NCBI GenBank assembly: GCA_016187035.1
Contig: JACPKL010000010.1
Coordinates: forward strand, 94,616-158,615
Length of the DNA: 64,000 nt
Source of the DNA: Candidatus Daviesbacteria bacterium
GTDB taxonomy: Bacteria; Patescibacteriota; Microgenomatia; Daviesbacterales; UBA10151
Direction: 5' to 3'
The notes beneath the pieces were generated by a model. That model saw only the letters and a list, made by a program, of their open reading frames with translations, made no database searches and was not told the origin of the DNA. The stretch's first letter is position 1; every line of letters begins with the position of its first letter. The position numbers were made by a program, and so were the translations under genes. Shown here one piece after another: positions 24,226 through 63,871 of this stretch.

Positions 24226-24259
24226 TTTGTCATCCCCAACTTGATTGGGGATCCATATA
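24226..24259 (-). repeat. palindromic repeat copy 1 immediately 5' of the dnaJ start codon
   Basis: tttgtcatccccaacttgattggggatccatata, forming the hairpin atcccca/tggggat. Confidence 0.6.
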
Positions 24260-24824: not shown

Positions 24825-24858
24825 TTTGTCATCCCCAATCTAATCGGGATCCATATTA
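24825..24858 (-). repeat. palindromic repeat copy 2 immediately 5' of the methyltransferase start codon
   Basis: tttgtcatccccaatctaatcgggatccatatta, nearly identical to copy 1. Confidence 0.6.
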
Positions 24859-25140
24859 TACGATTTTTGAATATAAATCTTTCCATTTTGGATTATTTTT
24901 TTCTATTAGTTCTATTTTCCATTGTCTATTCCATTGCTTGAGTCTTTTCTCTCTTAATATTGCTTGATTACTATCTTCATAAAGTTCAAAGTAAACCAAA
25001 TTATGGATCTGGTATTTACTTGTAAAACCCTCTACTAAATCATTTTTATGTTCGTAAATTCGTCTTATTAAATTATCAGTTACCCCAATATATAGTGTTC
25101 CATTTCTTCTACTTGCGAGTATATAAACGAAGTATTGCAT
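24856..25140 (-). CDS. GIY-YIG nuclease-family protein (UPF0213-like)
   Basis: YFVYILASRRNGTLYIGVTDNLIRRIYEH GIY-YIG core, 94 aa. Confidence 0.8.
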   Translation of the reverse strand: MQYFVYILASRRNGTLYIGVTDNLIRRIYEHKNDLVEGFTSKYQIHNLVYFELYEDSNQAILREKRLKQWNRQWKIELIEKNNPKWKDLYSKIV

Positions 25141-25145
25141 TTATA

Positions 25146-25172
25146 GATTCCCGCTTTCGCGGGAATGACAAA
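25146..25172 (-). repeat. related minimal hairpin (gtcattcccgcgaaagcgggaatc on the minus strand) between the dnaK stop and the GIY-YIG start
   Basis: Perfect GC-rich hairpin with the same GTCAT...GGGAAT-type termini. Confidence 0.5.
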
Positions 25173-25178
25173 TTGGAG

Positions 25179-27098
25179 TTATTCTTTTTTGTCTTCTTCT
25201 ACCACTTCACCTTCCACAGCCTCCTCAGTTTTGGGAGCTGCTTCCTCTTTGGGTTGCTCATCTGTTGGTTGTTCTGCTCCTGGCTGAGGTCCAGGCTGTC
25301 CACTTGGCTGTTGATACATAGCAGCTCCTACTTTTTGGGCTGACTCAGCCAAAGCGTCTGCTTTGGTTTTAATATCCTCTGTTGAACCAGATTTTAGGGC
25401 TTCTTTCAGCTCATTTATTTTTTGCTCAACTTCAGTCCTGACTTCAGCCGATACTTTATCCGAAGCATCCTTTAAAGTCCGCTCAGTTGAATAAACCAGG
25501 CTGTCAGCAGTGTTTTTTACCTCAATTCCCTCTTTTCTCTTTTTATCCTCCTCAGCATGAGCTTCTGCTTCCTTTGTCATTTTCTCTACTTCATCTTTGG
25601 ACAAACCTGTGGAACCGGTAATAGTAATTTTTTGTTCTTTGTTGGTAGCTTTATCTTTGGCTGAAACATTTAAAATGCCATTAGCGTCAATATCAAAGGT
25701 AACTTCAACTTGTGGCACACCCCTGGGAGCAGGAGGAATTCCGTCCAAAACAAACCTGCCTAAAGATTTATTATCAGCTGCCATCTCCCTTTCACCTTGT
25801 AATACATTAATTTCTACAGCCGGCTGGTTATCTGCAGCTGTTGAAAATACCTCAGATTTTGAAGTAGGAATAGTAGTATTTCTTGGGATTAATGGCGTCC
25901 TTACTCCACCTAAGGTTTCTATACCTAAAGTCAGGGGAGTCACATCTAAAAGCAGCACGTCTTTAACTTCTCCTCCCAACACTCCACCCTGGATAGCAGC
26001 TCCCACAGCTACCACTTCATCGGGGTTAATCCCTTTGTGCGGTTCTTTGCCAAAAAAGTCTTGGACCGACCTTTGACAGAGGGGCATCCTGGTCATTCCA
26101 CCCACCAGCACTACTTCATCAACATCTTTTGCTTCTATCTTGGCATCTTTTAAGGCAGCTTTAACAGCATCAAAGGTCTTGTCAATTAAAGGTTTAACCA
26201 TAGCTTCAAGTTTTGCTCTTGACAGCTTCATCTCCAAATGCTTGGGGCCAGAGGCATCAGCTGTGATAAAGGGAATGGAGATTGCTGCCTCCTGGGTTGA
26301 GGACAATTCAATTTTCGCTTTTTCTGCAGCATCCCTTAACCTTTGCAAAGCCTGTCTGTCGCCTTTAAGATCAATTCCCTGCTCTTTTTTAAATTCTTCT
26401 GCTAACCAGTCCAAAATCACCTGGTCAAAATCATCTCCACCCAAATGAGTATCACCATTAGTTGATTTAACCTCAAATACACCGTCTCCCAACTCAAGGA
26501 TGGAGATATCAAAAGTTCCGCCACCTAAATCATAAACAGCAATGGTATGTGCGTGAGCTTTATCCAAACCATAAGCCAAAGCAGCAGCAGTCGGCTCATT
26601 AATAATCCTTTGAACATTTAACCCGGCTATTTCACCAGCTTGTTTGGTGGCTTGCCTTTGGGCGTCATCAAAATAGGCCGGAACTGTGATAACTGCATCT
26701 GTCACTTTCTCACCCAAATAGCCTTCAGCATCTGCTTTAATCTTTTGTAAAATCTGGGCAGAAATTTCCTGGGGGGTATACTCATGGCCTTCTACTTCCA
26801 CAACAGCCATACCTTCCCTGCCTTCTTTGATAGTGTAAGGAAGCCATTTAATATCTCTTTGCACTTCAGGATCTTTAAACTTTCTGCCCATTAACCTCTT
26901 GATAGAAAAGATGGTTTCTTTAGGGTTTACTACAGCCTGTCTTTTGGCTACCCTGCCAACAATGTTTTTAATAGGATTAACAACAGAAGGGATAATATTT
27001 TCCCCCTCAGCACTATGAATAACTTTGGGCTTACCACCTTCCATTACAGCCACGGCAGAATTGGTTGTTCCTAAATCAATGCCTACAATTTTGCTCAT
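25179..27098 (-). CDS. dnaK: chaperone DnaK (Hsp70)
   Basis: [18 protein letters not shown] and related motifs. A canonical AAGGAGG Shine-Dalgarno lies upstream. Its start overlaps the grpE stop. Confidence 0.95.
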
Positions 27099-28674: not shown

Positions 28675-28745
28675 CTTTTACTTATCAGGATATTAGTCCT
28701 CAAATTATTAGACCAATCATTCCACCTGAAATATGTGTACCAATT

Positions 28746-28797
28746 TACTGTACGATCGTACAGTAAAATGGTATGGACATACATATATACGATCGTA
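28746..28797. repeat. two TACGATCGTA-core palindromes (tactgtacgatcgtacagta; catacatatatacgatcgtatcaatgtatg)
   Basis: Perfect 20-bp palindrome at 28746-28765 and a second copy at 28788-28797 inside a larger inverted repeat. Confidence 0.6.
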
Positions 28798-28835
28798 TCA
28801 ATGTATGGGATAGATTTCTGTGTTATGATTAATTT

Positions 28836-32754: not shown

Positions 32755-32825
32755 CTACTTAGATCTAAATAATTAATTCCATACATTGATACGATCGTTT
32801 AAATGTATGTCAACTATTTAAAATT

Positions 32826-43822: not shown

Positions 43823-43859
43823 TATGCAAGTAGGTATTACTCATGGAAGAAACATTACT

Positions 43860-44120
43860 ATGAGAGAATTGGAAACCACCCTGACGCAGAAGGGTCAAGT
43901 GACAATCCCCGTGGAGATCCGTTCCCGCCTGGGCCTGAAACCGAAAGATAAGGTGCGGTTTGAAGTGGAGGGGGATGAAGTCAAGATCAAGCCCGCGCCC
44001 TCGCGCATTGCCCGCCACTTTGGGGCGGTGGCTGTATCTGGAAAGTCGCTGGATTGGCGAGTCGAGCGGAAGGCGTTTGAGGAAGGCGTGGCCGAGGAGG
44101 TAGTGGCCGAGGATCGGTGA
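43860..44120 (+). CDS. vapB: AbrB/MazE (SpoVT-AbrB) family antitoxin VapB
   Basis: TLTQKGQVTIPVEIRSRLGLKPKDKVRFEVEGDEVKIKP swapped-hairpin motif in GC-rich DNA. Overlaps vapC by 4 bp. Confidence 0.75.
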   Translation: MRELETTLTQKGQVTIPVEIRSRLGLKPKDKVRFEVEGDEVKIKPAPSRIARHFGAVAVSGKSLDWRVERKAFEEGVAEEVVAEDR

Positions 44121-44542
44121 TGTCTATGCCACGCTTCCTGGACACCAATATCCTGCTGCGCTACTTCACAGGCAGTGGTAGCGAGAAGGCCCTGGCAGCC
44201 AAAGTACTGCTTGAGCGCATAGAACAGAGCGAGGAGAAGGTAGTCATCTCCGTACTGGTGGTGTTTGAGACAATTTTCACCCTACAGCGCACCTACAAGG
44301 TGCCCAAGGTCAAGATCCGCGAGATGGTCGGCGATGTGATCGCCCTGCGCGGTGTCCAACTCACGGGCAAACGGCTATGCTTGCAAGCCTTGGATCTCTA
44401 TGTGGGAAAAAACATCTCCTTCGCCGACGCCTACAACGTCATCTACATGCAGTCGCAGCAGTTCTCGGAGATCTACAGCTGGGATACCGACTTTGACAGG
44501 ATCGAGGGCATTACTCGCATTGAGCCAGCCCAGGATATGTAA
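44117..44542 (+). CDS. vapC: PIN-domain toxin VapC
   Basis: FLDTNILLRYF N-terminal PIN motif and conserved acidic residues, in GC-rich DNA. Confidence 0.8.
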   Translation: MMSMPRFLDTNILLRYFTGSGSEKALAAKVLLERIEQSEEKVVISVLVVFETIFTLQRTYKVPKVKIREMVGDVIALRGVQLTGKRLCLQALDLYVGKNISFADAYNVIYMQSQQFSEIYSWDTDFDRIEGITRIEPAQDM

Positions 44543-44647
44543 GATTTCAATGTTGAAATACCGTATTTTTCAATCCTCTAGCCTTAAAACATTGAAAAAC
44601 TACCTAAACTTTGACTGAAATCTTACAGTATATGTTAATATAGGCAG

Positions 44648-46651
44648 ATGCCCACTTCGCAAAAGCTCAGTGTAAACTTTCTTGATGACTTAAATTCCAT
44701 TCAACAAAAAGCGGTTAAAACAACTGAGGGACCGGTATTAATTTTGGCCGGGGCTGGCTCCGGCAAAACCAGGGTGTTAACTTACCGCGTAGCTTATTTG
44801 ATTGCTGAGAAAAAGATTCCTCCTGAAAATATCCTTTGCCTGACCTTCACAAATAAAGCTGCTGGAGAAATGATGGATCGTATTTTAAAACTTTTGGACC
44901 ACCAGCTACCAGCTACTAACTACCAACTACCTATTATGGGCACTTTTCATTCTTTTTGTGCCAAAATCCTAAGACGTGATGGCAAAGCCTTAGGATTGCC
45001 TCCTGGCTTTACCGTATATGATGAATCCGATGCATTAGATGCTATAAAAGAAGCTATGGGTAATTTGAATATTCCGACCCAAAAAACTTCTCCTTTTTCA
45101 GTAAGACACACTATTTCTTCAGCTAAAAATGAATTAATTTCTGCACTTGAATACCCACAATATGCCAGAGGGTATTTCCAGGAAACTGTAGCTAAAATTT
45201 ATTTAGAATATCAGAAGATTTTAGAGAAAAATAAAGCCCTGGATTTTGATGACCTGCTGCTGACAACTATTAAGCTGTTTCAAACAGAACCAGCTATATT
45301 GACCCGCTATCAAATTCAATTCCGTTATATCTTAATAGATGAATACCAGGATACCAACCCTGCTCAATATCTGATTTCAAAATATTTAGCAAACAGGCAT
45401 AAAAATATTTGTGTAGTCGGGGATGCTTCACAATCTGTGTATTCTTTCAGAGGAGCAGATTTCAGAAACATTGTTAATTTTCAAAAAGACTACCCAAACG
45501 CTAAAGTTTTTAACCTGGAGCAAAATTACCGCTCTACCCAAAATATCCTGGATGCAGCCCATGCTGTAATTTCTAAAAATAAATTACATCCTATTTTGAA
45601 ACTTTGGACAAATAAAAATGGGGGAGAAAAAATTGAAATAGTGGAGGTAAGAAATGAAATTGAGGAAGCTCTATTTATCTTGTCCACCATAGATCACCTC
45701 CGAGGTGTAAGCGCATTTTTTCACCTCGGAGGTGTAGCCGTGCTTTATAGAACTAATGCCCAATCCCGTGCTTTAGAAGAACAATTTTTAAAATCTGGTA
45801 TCCCTTATAAATTAGTTGGTGGAGTAAGCTTTTACGAGAGAAGAGAGATTAAAGATATTTTATCCTACCTTAGGTTACTGCAAAATCCTAAGGACTCTGT
45901 ATCTTTAAAAAGAGCAGAAAAAATTGGCAAAGGAAGACTGGGAAAAGTTTTAGGATTCTCAGCGTCATTGCGGGGAATCGGACCGAGCGAAGCCAAGTCA
46001 GACTTGGTTTCGCCAAGTCTGACTTGGCGAAGCGAGGGAGATCGCTTGCAAAATGCGAAGCATTTTGACAAGGGCTCGAGTGAAACGAGCGGCCCTTCAG
46101 GCCTCGGAATGACCACAATCGAGCTATTAGATCAACTTCTAGCAAAAACAGGCTATTTGGCTTATTTGGATGATGGAACAGATGAAGGAGGGGGCAGGGT
46201 GGAAAATGTTAAAGAACTTAGGTCGGTAGCAGAAGAGTTTCCTAGTTTAGTCCAATTTTTAGAGAACGTGGCTTTGGTGGAAAATGGTTTTCTGCCTTCT
46301 TCTGAAAAAAATATTCAGCAAGACGTAGTAACTTTAATGACCCTGCATTCTGCTAAAGGCTTGGAGTTTCCGACAGTTTTTATGGTAGGAATGGAGGAAG
46401 GACTATTCCCCCATTCACGCTCTATGCTAAATCCTCAGGAACTTGAAGAGGAAAGAAGGCTTTGTTATGTGGGCATCACCAGGGCAAAAGAAAAATTATA
46501 TTTAACTTACAGCAGGCAAAGATTATATTTTGGCACCAGATCTAATAATTTAGTTTCCCGCTTTTTATCTGATATTCCCCAAGACTTAATTTCCTCTAAC
46601 ACAAACTTCAAAAACCAAGATCAAGATAATGAAGATTGGTTAAACACATGA
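44648..46651 (+). CDS. uvrD: ATP-dependent DNA helicase UvrD/PcrA, carrying an in-frame palindromic insert
   Basis: AGAGSGKTRVLT Walker A and UvrD motifs throughout. Insert at about 45965-46113. Confidence 0.9.
   Translation: MPTSQKLSVNFLDDLNSIQQKAVKTTEGPVLILAGAGSGKTRVLTYRVAYLIAEKKIPPENILCLTFTNKAAGEMMDRILKLLDHQLPATNYQLPIMGTFHSFCAKILRRDGKALGLPPGFTVYDESDALDAIKEAMGNLNIPTQKTSPFSVRHTISSAKNELISALEYPQYARGYFQETVAKIYLEYQKILEKNKALDFDDLLLTTIKLFQTEPAILTRYQIQFRYILIDEYQDTNPAQYLISKYLANRHKNICVVGDASQSVYSFRGADFRNIVNFQKDYPNAKVFNLEQNYRSTQNILDAAHAVISKNKLHPILKLWTNKNGGEKIEIVEVRNEIEEALFILSTIDHLRGVSAFFHLGGVAVLYRTNAQSRALEEQFLKSGIPYKLVGGVSFYERREIKDILSYLRLLQNPKDSVSLKRAEKIGKGRLGKVLGFSASLRGIGPSEAKSDLVSPSLTWRSEGDRLQNAKHFDKGSSETSGPSGLGMTTIELLDQLLAKTGYLAYLDDGTDEGGGRVENVKELRSVAEEFPSLVQFLENVALVENGFLPSSEKNIQQDVVTLMTLHSAKGLEFPTVFMVGMEEGLFPHSRSMLNPQELEEERRLCYVGITRAKEKLYLTYSRQRLYFGTRSNNLVSRFLSDIPQDLISSNTNFKNQDQDNEDWLNT
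45965..46113 (+). repeat. GC-rich palindromic element (GTCATTGCGGGG...CCTCGGAATGAC termini) inserted in-frame in uvrD
   Basis: Imperfect 12-bp terminal inverted repeats, internal palindromes ccaagtcagacttgg x2, and GC far above the local value. The ORF stays open across it. Confidence 0.65.
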
Positions 46652-50622: not shown

Positions 50623-51705
50623 ATGGATTTAAGGCCAATAGCTGACAAACAAAAATCTCAATACAACAAATTAGTTACTCATGTTATCCAGTCATGGGAG
50701 TGGGGAGAATTTAGAAAATCATTAGGGTTACCGGTTTTAAGATATGGGCTTTTTGAAGCTAACCAACTTACTGCAGCTTTTCAACTGACTTTGCACAAAA
50801 TACCTTTTACTAACAAATATGCCGGCTATTTACCAAAAGGCCCTGCTTCTGATTCGCAACTAGCTGAGGCTTTGGAAAAGATTGGCAGAAAACATAATTG
50901 CGCTTTTATCAAGCTGGAACCTAATATCCCCGTCATTGCGAGCGAAGCGAAGCAATCTTCTACCTTAACTAATAAGATTGCCACAGTACGTTCAGTTGAC
51001 ATGAACGTACCTCGTAATGACAAATTAGTAGATAAAAGTTTTATTCCTTCTCCAAAACCATTATTTACTAAATATAATTTTGTTTTGGATCTAACACAAT
51101 CAGAAGAGCAAATTTTAAAAAACATGCATTCAAAAACCAGATACAATATTAAACTAGCTCAAAAACATGAAGTAAAAGTTGAAGAAAAAACTGATGATGA
51201 AGCTTTTAAGATTTATTTAAAATTATATTTTGAAACAACTAAAAGGCAAGGTTACCATGGACATAATGAGTATTATCACCAAAAGGTTTGGGAAACTTTA
51301 AAAAAAACAGGAATGGCCAGATTACTGATTGCCTCATACAAAAACGAGCCTTTAACTGCCTGGATGCTTTTGAATTTCAAAGACACCCTTTATTACCCTT
51401 ATGGCGGATCTAACAAAAACCATCCGGAAGTAATGGCCAGTAACTTGATAGCCTGGGAAGCTATAACTTTAGGTAAAAAGCTGAAGCTTAAAAAGTTTGA
51501 TATGTGGGGAGCTTTGGGACCTGATGCTAATTCCAAAGATCCCTGGTATGGATTTCATAGATTTAAAGCTGGTTTCGGAGGAAAACTCATAGAATATATC
51601 GGCACTTATGATTTAGTCTTTGACTGGCCACTTTACTGGATGTTTACTTTAATAGATAAATTAACACCACTAAAAGTCTTTCTGTTAAAATTACTTGGAA
51701 AATAG
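50623..51705 (+). CDS. FemAB-family peptidoglycan interpeptide-bridge peptidyltransferase, carrying an in-frame palindromic insert
   Basis: FemAB/MurM-like N-terminus (HVIQSWEWGEF) and a GNAT-like C-terminal half. Insert at 50932-51021. Confidence 0.7.
   Translation: MDLRPIADKQKSQYNKLVTHVIQSWEWGEFRKSLGLPVLRYGLFEANQLTAAFQLTLHKIPFTNKYAGYLPKGPASDSQLAEALEKIGRKHNCAFIKLEPNIPVIASEAKQSSTLTNKIATVRSVDMNVPRNDKLVDKSFIPSPKPLFTKYNFVLDLTQSEEQILKNMHSKTRYNIKLAQKHEVKVEEKTDDEAFKIYLKLYFETTKRQGYHGHNEYYHQKVWETLKKTGMARLLIASYKNEPLTAWMLLNFKDTLYYPYGGSNKNHPEVMASNLIAWEAITLGKKLKLKKFDMWGALGPDANSKDPWYGFHRFKAGFGGKLIEYIGTYDLVFDWPLYWMFTLIDKLTPLKVFLLKLLGK
50932..51021 (+). repeat. 90-bp GC-rich palindromic element with perfect 11-bp terminal inverted repeats GTCATTGCGAG / CTCGTAATGAC, in-frame in the FemAB-like CDS
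   Basis: Shares its ends, core (gcgaagcaatcttc...aataagattgccac) and translation frame with the sbcD copy. Confidence 0.7.
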
Positions 51706-51777: not shown

Positions 51778-52284
51778 ATGGACACTACACTAATCATCTC
51801 CGGAGGTATTTTGATAGGCTGCATTATATCCCTATCCTGGTTTGCTGGCTCTGATGCACCCTTTGTACCCACCAAAATGGATCATATCAGAAAAATCCTC
51901 AAGCTTGCCGGAGTTAAAAAAGGAAAAAGATTTTATGAGCTAGGATCTGGTGATGGCAGGGTTGTCCTTGCTGCTGCCAAACTGGGTGCTTATGCCGTTG
52001 GCATAGAACAATCCTGGATTAGGATTTTATATTCCAAACAATTAGCTTTACACCTTCCAGGTATCAACGTAAAGTTCTATCATGGAAATTTATTTTCCAA
52101 ATCCTATAAAGATGCTGATATTATTTATATTTACCTGCTTCATAAAGGTGTTAAGAAACTGGAGGAAAAGCTTAAAAAGGAATTAAAAAAAGGTGCTATA
52201 GTAATTACCCAAACTTATCATTTCCCAAACTGGAGACCATTTAAAAAAGAGGGGGATTTTTGGTTGTACAAACAAACATTTTAG
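51778..52284 (+). CDS. small class I methyltransferase-like protein
   Basis: YELGSGDGRVVLAAAKLGAYAVGIE Rossmann motif I. Confidence 0.5.
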   Translation: MDTTLIISGGILIGCIISLSWFAGSDAPFVPTKMDHIRKILKLAGVKKGKRFYELGSGDGRVVLAAAKLGAYAVGIEQSWIRILYSKQLALHLPGINVKFYHGNLFSKSYKDADIIYIYLLHKGVKKLEEKLKKELKKGAIVITQTYHFPNWRPFKKEGDFWLYKQTF

Positions 52285-53468
52285 TGTACGATCGTACAAG
52301 CAATTGGTACGGCTTTTGTAATCTGCTCAAGTCTCTCGTTTCTAATTGTATACAAATCCTCTATTCTGACCCCACCAAACATAGGAATATAAATCCCAGG
52401 CTCTATGGAAAAAACCATTCCTGTCTTTAAAACTTCCTTGCTTTTGGGTGAAAGGGAAGGATGTTCATGAACTTCAAGTCCTATCCCATGACCTAAGGAG
52501 TGAGGTAAATTCGGATAACCCTTAGACTTAATATAATCCCTGGCTACTTTGTCTACATCTGCTGACTGCACTTGCTTAGTAGAATTAATATAGTCTACTG
52601 CTTTCTTTTGTGCTTCTAAAGCTACCTCGTACATTTCCTGTTGTTTCCTGATAGGTTTTCCAAAAAATACAGTCCTGGTCATATCAGAACAATAATTTTC
52701 CCATTTTACTCCGAAATCGAGAAGGACGATTAGTCCTTCTCGTCCTGAGCGAGACTTCGACGGTGAGCTCAGTCGAACCGCGGAGCGAGTCGCACGTTCG
52801 ACAAGCTCAGTGCGACCCTGAGCGACAGTCGAATGGGTCGAAAGACCCAAAACAGTTTGTCCAGTTTGATGATGCGGTATAGCAGAATTTTTACCAAAAG
52901 CAACTATAGCTGGAAAAGAAAACTCTCCTCCTTGCCCTTTAATAAAATCCTCCAATTTATTAGCAATTTCTTTTTCAGTTACACCTATTTTAATCTGTTT
53001 TAAAATATACTCAAAAGCCAAATCCCCTATCTTACAAGCCTTTTTTATTTTCTTTATTTCATCAGGAGTTTTTATGCTCCTATTTAATTTAAAATGTTTT
53101 GTGGTTTTAAAATGCTTTTTTACTAATTTTGCCTCTAGTACAGTTAAATTATCCTCCTCTATTCCTAAAATTTTAATTTGATTTTTTAGCTTTTTAAACA
53201 ACTGTTCCGTTGGTGTTTGATGACTTCTTTCAAAAAGTTCAAAATGTGGCACTTGTTTTTTTATGGCATGGGTATATCTGCCATCAGTAATAATATATTG
53301 AAGATTATTTCCTATTATTAAGTAGGCTTCTCTTTCTTCCTTTGAAAAATTAGCATAACCTGTCAGATAAGTAATATTAGAAACAGAGGAAATAAAAACT
53401 GCATCTAATTTTCTTTCTTTAAGATTTTCCCTGATATTTTTTAATCTGGTTACAAACATGCCCCACAT
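52281..53468 (-). CDS. pepP: Xaa-Pro aminopeptidase (M24B), carrying a GC-rich in-frame insert
   Basis: Creatinase-like N-domain with M24 metal ligands (HGIGLEVHE) at the C-terminus. GC-rich insert at about 52745-52855. Confidence 0.8.
   Translation of the reverse strand: MWGMFVTRLKNIRENLKERKLDAVFISSVSNITYLTGYANFSKEEREAYLIIGNNLQYIITDGRYTHAIKKQVPHFELFERSHQTPTEQLFKKLKNQIKILGIEEDNLTVLEAKLVKKHFKTTKHFKLNRSIKTPDEIKKIKKACKIGDLAFEYILKQIKIGVTEKEIANKLEDFIKGQGGEFSFPAIVAFGKNSAIPHHQTGQTVLGLSTHSTVAQGRTELVERATRSAVRLSSPSKSRSGREGLIVLLDFGVKWENYCSDMTRTVFFGKPIRKQQEMYEVALEAQKKAVDYINSTKQVQSADVDKVARDYIKSKGYPNLPHSLGHGIGLEVHEHPSLSPKSKEVLKTGMVFSIEPGIYIPMFGGVRIEDLYTIRNERLEQITKAVPIACTIVH
52285..52298. repeat. TGTACGATCGTACA palindrome at a convergent gene junction
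   Basis: Perfect 14-bp palindrome between the 51778..52284 (+) and pepP (-) stops. Confidence 0.6.
52745..52855 (-). repeat. GC-rich palindromic in-frame insert within pepP, related to the grpE patch by the shared 11-mer gcgagacttcg
   Basis: Multiple internal inverted repeats (gctcagg/cctgagc, gggtctttcgaccc). Encodes HSTVAQGRTELVERATRSAVRLSSPSKSRSGREG. Confidence 0.55.
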
Positions 53469-53488: not shown

Positions 53489-54733
53489 TTGATGAAACTT
53501 CTTCATTTTTCTGATCTTCATATTGGGATGGAAAATTATGCTAAATTGGATCCTGAAACAGGATTATCCTCAAGACTTTTGGACTTTTTTAAAACTTTTG
53601 ATTTTATTGTTGAAACTGCTTTTACAGAAGATGTTGATGCTGTTATTTTTGCTGGAGATGCTTATAAAACCCGTGACCCAAACCCTACCCAGCAAAGAGG
53701 TTTTGGTGAAAGAATTAAAAAACTAGCCAAAAAAATCCCGGTAATATTGGTCGTGGGAAACCACGATACTCCTAATGCTGACGGCAAAGCTAATACTTTG
53801 GATATATATTCTGCTTTGGAAATAGAAAATGTTTTGGTATCAAGAAAACCTGAGTACTTAGAAATCTCCACTAAATCAGGCTCCTTACAAATTATCACTC
53901 TTCCCTGGCTGCATAAAAATGACTACAAAACAATCGGGGATAAACTGCAACTGCAGTATGACAAAATCAAACCTTCCTCTCCTGCTATACTTTTATCACA
54001 TGCTGAAGTAGAAGGAGCAACATATGGGTCTGAAAAAGGCCTGGCAATTGCAAATGATGTGACTATTCCCCTGCCTCTTTTACAGGATAAAAGAATATCT
54101 TATGCGGCTTTAGGCCATATCCACAAACATCAAGTTTTATCAAAAAACCCTTTGGTTGTTTACTGCGGCTCTCCCCAAAGGATTGATTTCGGAGAAGAAA
54201 AGGAAGAAAAAGGCATATGCCTTGTGGAAATAAGTCCCTCTTTGTCATTGCGAGCGACAGCGAAGCAATCTTCCACCTCCAATAATAAGATTGCCACGTC
54301 CTCGTCTACGGCGACTCCTCGCAATGACGGTTTTACCGCCTCTTTTCAATTTATCCCTACCAATGCCAGAAAATTTTTAACCATTATCGTTAATTTAAAA
54401 AACGGACAAGAAAACCCTACTCAAACCATTCTGGAAGAAATTCAAAATTATGATATTAAAGACAAGATAGTCAGGCTGATTATAAACATCCCTGCTGATT
54501 GTAATAAAGAAATCCATATGGACAAAATTAAAAAAGCTTTATCCGCCTCTCACCTGATTGCCGGTATTTCCAGAAATGTGGAAAGAGTAGAAAGGGTGAA
54601 GTTTGATGGAGGGAAAGAAGTGGAAACTTTAACACCAGTTATGGCTTTAAGAAAATATTTTGAGTTTAAAAAATACCCTCTTCAAAAACAAAAAGAGTTG
54701 GAAAAATACGCTGCCCAGCTGTTAGATAGTTAA
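53489..54733 (+). CDS. sbcD: exonuclease SbcD (Mre11-like), carrying an in-frame palindromic insert
   Basis: LLHFSDLHIG phosphoesterase motif I. Insert at 54244-54328. Confidence 0.85.
   Translation: MMKLLHFSDLHIGMENYAKLDPETGLSSRLLDFFKTFDFIVETAFTEDVDAVIFAGDAYKTRDPNPTQQRGFGERIKKLAKKIPVILVVGNHDTPNADGKANTLDIYSALEIENVLVSRKPEYLEISTKSGSLQIITLPWLHKNDYKTIGDKLQLQYDKIKPSSPAILLSHAEVEGATYGSEKGLAIANDVTIPLPLLQDKRISYAALGHIHKHQVLSKNPLVVYCGSPQRIDFGEEKEEKGICLVEISPSLSLRATAKQSSTSNNKIATSSSTATPRNDGFTASFQFIPTNARKFLTIIVNLKNGQENPTQTILEEIQNYDIKDKIVRLIINIPADCNKEIHMDKIKKALSASHLIAGISRNVERVERVKFDGGKEVETLTPVMALRKYFEFKKYPLQKQKELEKYAAQLLDS
54244..54328 (+). repeat. 85-bp GC-rich palindromic element with 11-bp TIRs GTCATTGCGAG / CTCGCAATGAC, within sbcD
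   Basis: Encodes ...RATAKQSSTSNNKIATSSSTATPRND..., paralleling the FemAB copy (...SEAKQSSTLTNKIAT...PRND...). Confidence 0.7.
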
Positions 54734-63649: not shown

Positions 63650-63664
63650 ATGGACATAAATGTG

Positions 63665-63674
63665 GACGATCGTA
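63665..63674. repeat. GACGATCGTA palindrome copy downstream of the UbiA-family gene
   Basis: Same ACGATCGT core as 28746-28797, 32790-32798 and 52285-52298. Confidence 0.5.
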
Positions 63675-63871
63675 TTAATGTATGGGGTAAGAACCCCCTA
63701 TTCAAGGCAGGGCCAACCAGGCAATTCTTAAAACACTGGCAGAATATTTTCAAGTCCCAATTTCCTCTGTCTCCCTGGTCTCAGGCTACACCTCCAAACA
63801 AAAAATAATTAATATTGAGGCATAAACAATTAGTTAACCAGGGCAATCTCTGAAGAAGGTTTTCCTTCAAT

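Follow-up and report, generated by a model that had tools for sequence, protein, structure and literature searches.

A GC-rich palindromic insert in the uvrD gene of a Candidatus Daviesbacteria bacterium and its probable kinship with CGTC-REP/Ssn-related hairpin repeats

A GC-rich block in the 2B region of uvrD

The subject of this analysis is a 150-bp palindromic block, here called E1, that lies within the uvrD gene of a Candidatus Daviesbacteria bacterium. The DNA examined is a 64,000-nt stretch (the window, whose positions are used throughout), in which the host gene encodes a 667-residue UvrD/PcrA-like helicase that is 100% identical to a Candidatus Daviesbacteria protein. Two shorter relatives of E1, E2 and E3, lie in a FemAB-family gene and in an SbcD-like phosphoesterase gene, and an ssn-like gene for a predicted GIY-YIG nuclease, accompanied by hairpin repeats, is located 21 kb from E1 (Table 1). 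A first-pass annotation had placed the GC-rich block at 45965-46113 and described it as a longer variant of a palindromic element with a duplicated internal palindrome. The block does end at 46113 but starts one base earlier, at 45964; it is bounded by GTCATTGCGGGG and CCTCGGAATGAC, and its GC fraction of 0.56 stands out from the 0.365 of the whole window and the 0.33-0.37 of its flanks.

The two ends of E1 are complementary at 10 of 12 positions. When the window was searched for the terminal 12-mer, allowing two mismatches at most, seven matches were found against 1.5 expected, a number reached in none of 100 shuffles, and these seven delimit E1, E2 and E3. In all three, folding gives a closing stem that encloses internal hairpins (z from -5.4 to -7.6), with E1 reaching z = -7.6 relative to shuffles as DNA and -7.5 as RNA (-76.5 kcal/mol). 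The shorter copies agree with the description of E1 as a longer variant, as do two orthologous elements considered below. E1 is a multiple of three in length, has no stop in the uvrD frame and encodes UvrD residues ~440-489; in-frame translation within the open reading frame (ORF) gives the peptide that had been quoted. Three of the six frames of E1 are free of stops and hence antisense ORFs run across it (45865..46116 and 45888..46145), which had rightly been taken for by-products of this stop-poor, GC-rich block.

Table 1. Coordinates of E1, its parts, its host gene and the related features of the window
Feature	Position	Strand	Remarks
UvrD/PcrA-like helicase gene, 667 aa	44648..46651	+	Pfam UvrD-helicase 2.5e-89, UvrD_C 1.9e-68; PcrA 1pjr E = 2e-166
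E1, probable composite inverted dimer of GTCAT-tagged hairpin repeats, in frame in uvrD	45964..46113		Basis: sequence, ORF, terminal inverted repeat, fold, absence from most orthologues
E1 left arm CGTCATTGCGGGGAATC	45963..45979	+	CGTC tag and degenerate hairpin, ATT...AAT pairing alone remaining; compared with NTS CGTCATTCCCGCGMAVGCGGGAATCYRG
E1 nested array CGAAG-[CCAAGTCAGACTTGG]-TTTCG-[CCAAGTCTGACTTGG]-CGAAG	45988..46032		Two 15-nt palindromes between direct CGAAG repeats
E1 hairpin module GAGATCGCTTGCAAAA-TGCGAAGCA-TTTTGACAAGGG	46038..46074	+	
E1 modules GCTCGAGTGAAACGAGC and GGCCCTTCAGGCC	46074..46103	+	Common to the orthologous L002 and L126 elements
E1 right arm GTCATTCCGAGG	46102..46113	-	3' hairpin half (GGGAATC in L002) deleted in E1
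40-nt hairpin CACCTCCGAGGTG-TAAGCGCATTTTTT-CACCTCGGAGGTG, in frame in uvrD	45695-45734		At residue ~350 (HLRGVSAFFHLGG)
E2, 90-bp dimer of the same family, in frame in FemAB-family gene	50932..51021		VIASEAKQSS...PRND
E3, 85-bp dimer of the same family, in frame in SbcD-like phosphoesterase gene	54244..54328		SLRATAKQSS...PRND
ssn-like gene, 94-codon single-domain GIY-YIG nuclease (predicted)	24859..25140	-	Pfam GIY-YIG 3.7e-15
Canonical hairpin repeat TGTCATTCCCGCGAAAGCGGGAATCTAT	25143..25170	-	2 nt upstream of the ssn ATG; 8-bp stem, GAAA loop
Inverted hairpin repeat TGTCATCCCCAATCTAATCGGGATCC	24826..24852	+	Just downstream of ssn; weak 5-bp stem
Canonical single repeat TGTC-ATCCCCAA-CTTGA-TTGGGGAT-CCA	24228..24257	+	8-bp stem, 5-nt loop, CCA tail

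Alignment to PcrA (1pjr) puts E1 at about residues 430-480, which we take, from the known domain boundaries of PcrA/UvrD, to be the 2B domain. The interval between the LKRAEK...GK motif and GYL spans 84-91 residues in ordinary bacterial UvrD versus 41-47 in Microgenomates, where it contains a ten-residue linker, Y.E[IV]S.QLDK. An AlphaFold2 model built from 83 sequences gave a predicted local distance difference test score (pLDDT) below 50 at residues 454-483, with adjoining helices at 88-93, and thus predicts a low-confidence loop encoded by E1 in the 2B region. UvrD orthologues without any insert at the linker exist, and the proposed location in a permissive part of the 2B region is borne out. 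Presence of the same segment in unrelated phyla would have spoken against the earlier description; UvrD of other phyla has an unrelated native segment of 84-91 aa here, and the description stands.

Orthologue comparison and protein searches revealed the E1 sequence in this genome alone. A profile search with the E1 peptide across 1.84 billion representative proteins returned only two chance-level matches, both in repeat proteins, and three E1 modules had no matches in the viral-contig collection. No Rfam family matched the window, or 12 loci with canonical copies, at gathering thresholds, and no tRNA was found in the window. An assembly artefact was ruled out because the ORF is unbroken and this site holds related elements in assemblies made independently. 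An intein or self-splicing intron was also rejected, given an insert of 50 aa, the lack of an Rfam family and a peptide without relatives.

An element of the form GTCAT...ATGAC was present in the UvrD linker in 15 of 67 Microgenomates loci or contigs (L and P numbers below are our handles for loci and orthologous proteins), and remnants were present in three more. All 15 are in frame, using two reading frames, and their subfamilies and junctions differ. One kind, GTCATTGCGAG...CTCGCAATGAC, is read VIASEAKQS...PRND; a second, GTCATCCTGAG...CTCAGAATGAC, is read VILSE...PQND; and the third, found in the window, L002 and L126, is the first kind with its reading shifted later by one base; its right end is CTCGGAATGAC and it is read SLRG...GLGMT. 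The protein set also contains a VIPAEAGIH kind of linker insert. The junction falls either after EL and two further residues or after seven linker residues (L167, P0057, P0060), and the decayed remnants (L154, L161, L001) are still coding, for example as ATCATTGCGAATGAC in L154. E1 has both junctions and the 3' modules GAGTGAAACGAGC and GGCCCTTCNGGCC in common with the elements of L002 (84 bp) and L126 (96 bp). Relative to these it has 93 extra nt and is without the GCAATCT...AGATTCC hairpin (33 nt, compared with L002). The flanks of the E1 hairpin module at 46038-46074 are identical to those of intergenic hairpins in two other Daviesbacteria genomes. These GAGATCGCTTGCAAAA...TTTTGACAAGGG hairpins (L141:1004-1049, minus strand, and L147:16262-16305) show compensatory changes at the centre, and the L141 copy overlaps a promoter-like TTGACA-N16-TATCAT upstream of murJ.

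A second site in UvrD, at residue ~352, carries such repeats in 25 of 120 orthologues. The 40-nt hairpin of the window's uvrD lies here, at the same site as in many orthologues, with the loop reversed in five loci (L125, L130, L135, L172 and L186). When the 120 orthologues were ordered by neighbour joining, the element-bearing proteins were scattered; this tree was not used to count insertions because it is nearly star-like. Inteins of 363-439 aa are also present in three UvrD orthologues (P0083, P0090 and P0117), after residues ~40 and ~262; they are unrelated to the palindromic inserts and lie at two other positions.

The repeat family and the ssn-like gene

Other genes are affected in the same way. 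The position of E2 in FemAB, after FIKxEPN, is filled by other subfamilies in L146, L187 and L191, in a loop that is hypervariable in all orthologues, and the position of E3 in SbcD is also filled in L150. This shows a few protein loops to be sites at which elements repeatedly land or are retained. A census of 1.245 Mb of Microgenomates DNA yielded 27 real elements, with 21 read through inside ORFs; all 21 are stop-free and keep the frame. A methyltransferase is among their hosts, besides UvrD, FemAB and SbcD, and some orthologous sites are empty. Target-site duplications were lacking in 24 of these 27 copies from the candidate phyla radiation (CPR) and in 129 of 141 copies among the other matches listed. 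The flanks were complementary at -1/+1 in 19 of the 27 CPR copies and in 82% of the 143 viral-collection copies among the matches listed. Similarity of the interiors did not separate within-genome from between-genome pairs of copies.

We consider it very probable that E1 is a decayed composite inverted dimer of a CGTC/GTCAT-tagged hairpin family, sitting in frame in a permissive loop of UvrD. The family goes by the names CGTC-REPs, Ssn-related motifs (SRM), dRS3/NTS in Neisseria and RPE-4/-6 in Rickettsia. The tag is CGTC in the left arm of E1, CGTC and TGTC in E2, TGTC and CGTC in E3, and TGTC in the single copies of the ssn region; the right end of E1 reads GGTC, one base off the (C/T)GTC tag. 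Organisation as an inverted dimer with a variable spacer is common to E1, E2, E3 and at least 143 dimers in other contigs. The perfect-end form, GTCATTGCGAG-N40-70-CTCGCAATGAC, occurs in at least 143 copies in more than 120 contigs of the viral collection (36-73% GC), as well as in replicons of Novosphingobium (at least 40 places in one replicon), Methylosinus and Methylobacterium; no copies were found in cultured phage genomes. Stem positions 6-11 covary among subfamilies (TGCGAG/CTCGCA, CCTGAG/CTCAGA and TCTGGA/TCCAGG), and a TCCCGC...GCGGGA stem variant occurs as a single hairpin. In an unbiased count of 5-mer-tagged hairpins, informative solely with perfect 11-nt ends since one mismatch lets the AT-rich background swamp it, GTCAT came third (10 pairs), behind two 5-mers of an 88-nt repeat that resembles a miniature inverted-repeat transposable element (MITE). 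Full-text literature searches for the exact element-end strings, VIASEAKQS and a 24-mer gave only unrelated primers; further strings led to the Ssn study discussed below.

The protein encoded by the ssn-like gene aligns without gaps over 93 of 93 residues, at 58% identity, with the Neisseria gonorrhoeae SsnA homologue; two NTS copies come after the gonococcal gene. The residues that were mutated in SsnA (Y6, Y17 and E64) are kept at the same positions. The hairpin upstream of the gene has a 24-nt core identical to the Neisseria NTS consensus and is the sole strict SRM match within the window, where 0.08 would be expected. On the gene strand, the gene and its two hairpins form a GTCAT...ssn...ATGAC unit (24826-25170) with the same end geometry as E1-E3, and the GIY-YIG genes of L114 and L205 likewise lie between GTCAT hairpins or dimers. 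The published SsnA is a 94-aa single-domain GIY-YIG protein that binds its hairpin solely as single-stranded DNA and cuts a few nt upstream of GTC; the GTC before the palindrome and the C after it are critical, and binding and cleavage of the hairpin are on record solely for Ssn from four other species (Chenal et al. 2025, PMC11893778). The same study defined NTS as CGTCATTCCCGCGMAVGCGGGAATCYRG and SRM by the pattern HGTCWYN(0-2)YYVSBRHN(0-5)WNVSBRGN(0-2)RNCYNB, and noted that many ssn genes have repeats on both sides, in the manner of an insertion sequence (PMC11893778). The window thus resembles that system in its hairpin core, which equals the NTS consensus and fits the SRM pattern, in its repeat-gene-repeat layout and in the size, single domain and conserved residues of the predicted nuclease. 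It differs in that the Neisseria repeats lie around genes and modulate natural transformation, whereas the dimers of the window lie in frame in core genes; Patescibacteria are unmentioned in the Ssn study (PMC11893778).

CGTC-REPs were described as repeats with a CGTC or TGTC tag, an AT-starting stem of 8-9 bp, a loop of 4-5 nt, a CCA tail and mostly dimeric organisation (Di Nocera, De Gregorio and Rocco 2013, PMC3733652). That survey placed the dRS3 of Neisseria in the family, along with RPE-6 and RPE-4 of R. conorii, classed as CGTC-1 and CGTC-4 repeats respectively, and reported intragenic copies in repair genes including UvrD/Rep helicases (PMC3733652). The elements of the window are alike in tag, AT-start stem, CCA-like tail, inverted dimers and UvrD/Rep residence, and the single copies at 24228-24257 and 25143-25170 match the description exactly, including its full stem, the latter also fitting the strict SRM pattern. 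They differ in host, as the five phyla of the 2013 list do not include CPR/Patescibacteria (PMC3733652), in the shorter arm stems and long loops of E1-E3 and in the extra nested hairpins of E1.

The ends of the window's elements read GTCAT, not the GTAG of REPs in the REPIN/RAYT system. RPE are said to be palindromic repeats translated in frame in many unrelated genes, tolerated owing to their position in permissive surface regions. In-frame residence in unrelated genes, orthologues without the insert and decay in place are features found here as well; RPE-1, however, is longer and belongs to another sequence family, and the kinship with RPE-4/-6 rests on the 2013 classification (PMC3733652). 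Similarly, REPINs are inverted doublets of short palindromes with a variable spacer and a long-hairpin or cloverleaf fold, insert into or beside existing copies and have a single-copy partner gene between repeats, but carry a GTAG tag, have a Y1 (HUH) transposase as partner and are extragenic (Bertels and Rainey 2011, PMC3116915).

A 15-nt palindrome nested within E1

The tandem pair reported as a duplicated internal palindrome is present: GCCAAGTCAGACTTGG (45992-46007) and GCCAAGTCTGACTTGG (46012-46027) are spaced by 20 nt and pair perfectly over 16 nt. It is, however, a separate small repeat nested in E1 rather than a duplication of E1's own core, and consists of two copies of the 15-nt palindrome CCAAGTCWGACTTGG, at 45993-46007 and 46013-46027, between direct CGAAG repeats. 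Elsewhere in the window there was no match to the GCCAAGTCAGACTTGG/GCCAAGTCTGACTTGG motif except one with three mismatches at 27049-27064, which is at chance level (0.42 expected). A metagenome scan for two CCAAGTCNGACTTGG copies 3-8 nt apart detected 24 contigs representing ~14 distinct loci, nearly all of 30-43% GC.

Nearly all of these arrays have the form X-P-X-P-X, where P is the palindrome and the spacer X, often CGAAG, CTTCG, CCGAAG or CGAAAG, also stands on both flanks. The palindrome is nested at the CGAAG motif of GTCAT elements in L209, between GTCATTCTGGAACGAAG and CGAAGTGATAGAATC, and in L227, between GTCATTCCCGCGAAAG and CGAAAGCGGGAATC. An ORF reads through the array at eight loci; six of the eight have a 21-nt period and read as ..AKSDL.. 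repeats, and two 19-nt-period arrays (L208 and L218) are also in open frames, while all 20-nt arrays lie outside ORFs. The flanking repeats look like target duplications but vary in length. The very small dispersed repeats (SDR) of cyanobacteria are reportedly ~20-nt repeats nested within larger hairpin repeats. The nesting of CCAAGTCWGACTTGG in GTCAT elements is alike, with no sequence relation, and the palindrome differs from SDR in being flanked by direct repeats of 4-6 nt and in often being tandem.

Tandem CCAAGTCTGACTTGG units were also seen at L225:2129-2164 and L217:2191-2224, one of them in a putative IF2-type GTPase gene (by its sequence motifs), where they read VVLTKSDLVLTKSDLVLTK; in another of those contigs such units stand directly after an apparent tRNA 3' end, ...GGTCCA. 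Small GIY-YIG proteins are encoded 0.7-1.5 kb from 15-nt palindrome arrays at L205:4449-4745, L211:6481-6663 and L214:2103-2285. This nearness could be chance, because the same contigs also carry GTCAT hairpins.

Origin and persistence of E1

We propose that E1 arose from two hairpin units facing outward, giving GTCAT...ATGAC, and that its interior would have been rebuilt by a 33-nt deletion and by the addition of ~93 nt of small hairpins, including the unrelated tandem 15-nt palindrome with its CGAAG direct repeats. The host linker in the 2B region, already short in Microgenomates, would tolerate arbitrary sequence; because of this tolerance, the absence of stops and the multiple-of-three length, E1 would be transcribed and translated as an unstructured loop of ~50 residues, leaving the helicase intact. 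For its persistence, this account draws on sequence comparison and on a structure model. As for spread, Ssn may nick single-stranded DNA at the hairpins, after which repair, recombination or copying would seed, exchange and erode dimers, and selection would then spare in-frame copies in permissive loops alone. We infer both the action of Ssn on E1-E3 and this route of spread and exchange at the same sites.

Several points weigh against this proposal. The arms of E1 neither fit the strict SRM pattern nor have a stem of 8-9 bp; those of E1-E3 have ATT(GC)...(GC)AAT stems of 3-5 bp with long loops, the right arm of E1 is truncated, and the E1 arms may be too degenerate for the nuclease still to recognise them. 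The hairpin beside ssn (ATTCCCGC/GCGGGAAT) is unlike the ATTGC/GCAAT arms of E2 and E3, any cross-recognition is putative, and Ssn is not known to move DNA. We saw no polymorphism for excision or insertion, and the argument that the insert is translated comes from conservation of the reading frame. Recurrence at the UvrD linker, at UvrD residue ~350, in the FemAB loop and in SbcD exceeds what tolerance alone explains. Finally, similarity of the interiors ignores orthology; repeated insertion and gene conversion between copies are both conjectural.

In a bolder reading, which we hold to be unlikely, the 24826-25170 unit is an autonomous mobile element with the 94-aa GIY-YIG protein as its "transposase", E1-E3 are derivatives of it and, independently, CCAAGTCWGACTTGG is a mobile nano-element. 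E1-E3 may then be miniature derivatives, homing to or converting hairpin sites already present in the permissive loops of core genes; the occurrence of different subfamilies at identical UvrD, FemAB and SbcD codons across Daviesbacteria would be explained by this. The palindrome CCAAGTCWGACTTGG may duplicate a CGAAG-like target and nest in GTCAT repeats; if so, it would be among the smallest mobile DNAs. It is improbable that E1 is instead a non-autonomous transposon, either a REPIN moved by RAYT or a MITE of a DDE transposase recognising the GTCAT ends, with the GIY-YIG protein as a bystander. Inverted conserved arms that form terminal inverted repeats, the variable spacer and compensatory changes within a long hairpin are all REPIN-like, and the elements adjoin or sit within other elements, as REPINs do (PMC3116915). 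Yet the tag is (C/T)GTC rather than GTAG, target-site duplications are lacking in most copies, and tblastn with E. coli RayT, a search of limited sensitivity, found no match in the 64 kb of the window or across 1.2 Mb of Microgenomates loci, whereas Ssn-like genes lie beside the repeats in L114, L205 and the window itself. The 2013 survey, moreover, associated no transposase with CGTC repeats (PMC3733652).

The remaining alternatives give the insert a role in RNA, in the protein or in regulation. A regulatory or partner-binding function of the protein has some appeal because the 2B domain regulates the activity of UvrD/PcrA/Rep, the Microgenomates 2B region is short by ~40 residues, so that a refill could matter, and the insert is kept in frame. 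An adaptive, lineage-specific 2B extension in which the palindromes are incidental is nevertheless highly improbable: the E1 sequence is unique to this genome, orthologues have unrelated inserts in two frames or none, the model confidence is low, and the peptide is dictated by DNA hairpins common to the FemAB and SbcD inserts. We give even less credence to E1 as an intervening sequence removed from RNA, its closing stem joining the uvrD exon ends for cleavage and ligation. The strong closing stem and internal hairpins of the RNA fold would suit it, as would the covariation of the stem between subfamilies, which translation alone does not demand. However, all 21 census copies within genes and all 15 UvrD-linker copies are stop-free and in frame, which counts against splicing because a spliced insert needs no frame; in addition, stemless decayed remnants persist as coding sequence, no Rfam family matched, and the published partner SsnA acts on single-stranded DNA, not RNA (PMC11893778). 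Equally hard to credit is cis-regulatory DNA in uvrD, with the tandem palindromes and the TTGACA hairpin acting as an operator pair or internal promoter. The two 15-bp palindromes are spaced by two helical turns (20 bp), and the module at 46038-46074 matches the L141 hairpin at the sigma-70-like promoter upstream of murJ. A consensus scan, by which we rejected an internal promoter, nonetheless found no complete sigma-70-like promoter in E1 and no -10 box after its TTGACA, and the arrays elsewhere are within coding sequences, within other repeats or after a tRNA, settings that are ill-suited to a dedicated operator.

E1 as a decayed dimer of the CGTC/GTCAT family is a known kind of element, and what is new is the Patescibacteria host for CGTC-REP/SRM repeats and Ssn nucleases. 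The GC-rich block in a CPR helicase gene now has a place in a family that, like its partner enzyme, has already been described, and there is no need to treat it as a new domain or an assembly error. In Patescibacteria, these repeats are mostly within core genes, not between genes. With roughly a dozen copies in each megabase, a single ssn gene in the window and clear empty and filled orthologous sites, the small CPR genomes could be a compact system for asking how the repeats spread, a question left by the 2013 and 2025 papers (PMC3733652, PMC11893778). For annotation, where CPR proteins contain peptides like VIASEAKQS...PRND and SLRG...GLGMT, these derive from repeats, and antisense ORFs across such blocks are spurious.

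Other repeats and genes were noted in the window. The 88-nt AT-rich, MITE-like repeat, GTAAGATTTCAATG...TGACTGAAATCTTAC, lies at 44539-44626, 21 nt upstream of the uvrD start codon; a listed ORF (44352-44618) extends into it, and L125, L131 and L155 have 3-5 copies per ~15-kb locus. Directly upstream of uvrD, at 43824-44542, two overlapping adjacent ORFs of 98 and 141 aa possibly encode an antitoxin/toxin pair, and their GC content of 50-64%, in a window of 36%, suggests recent acquisition. An M24 peptidase gene contains a GC-rich extra segment of ~35 aa (STVAQGRTELVERATRSAVRLSSPSKSRSGREG; 52710-52847, minus strand) with small hairpins outside the GTCAT family. Dispersed palindromes of 33-41 nt around TACGATCGTA, at 28737-28816, 32771-32814, 52277-52312 and 63650-63689, belong to another repeat family.

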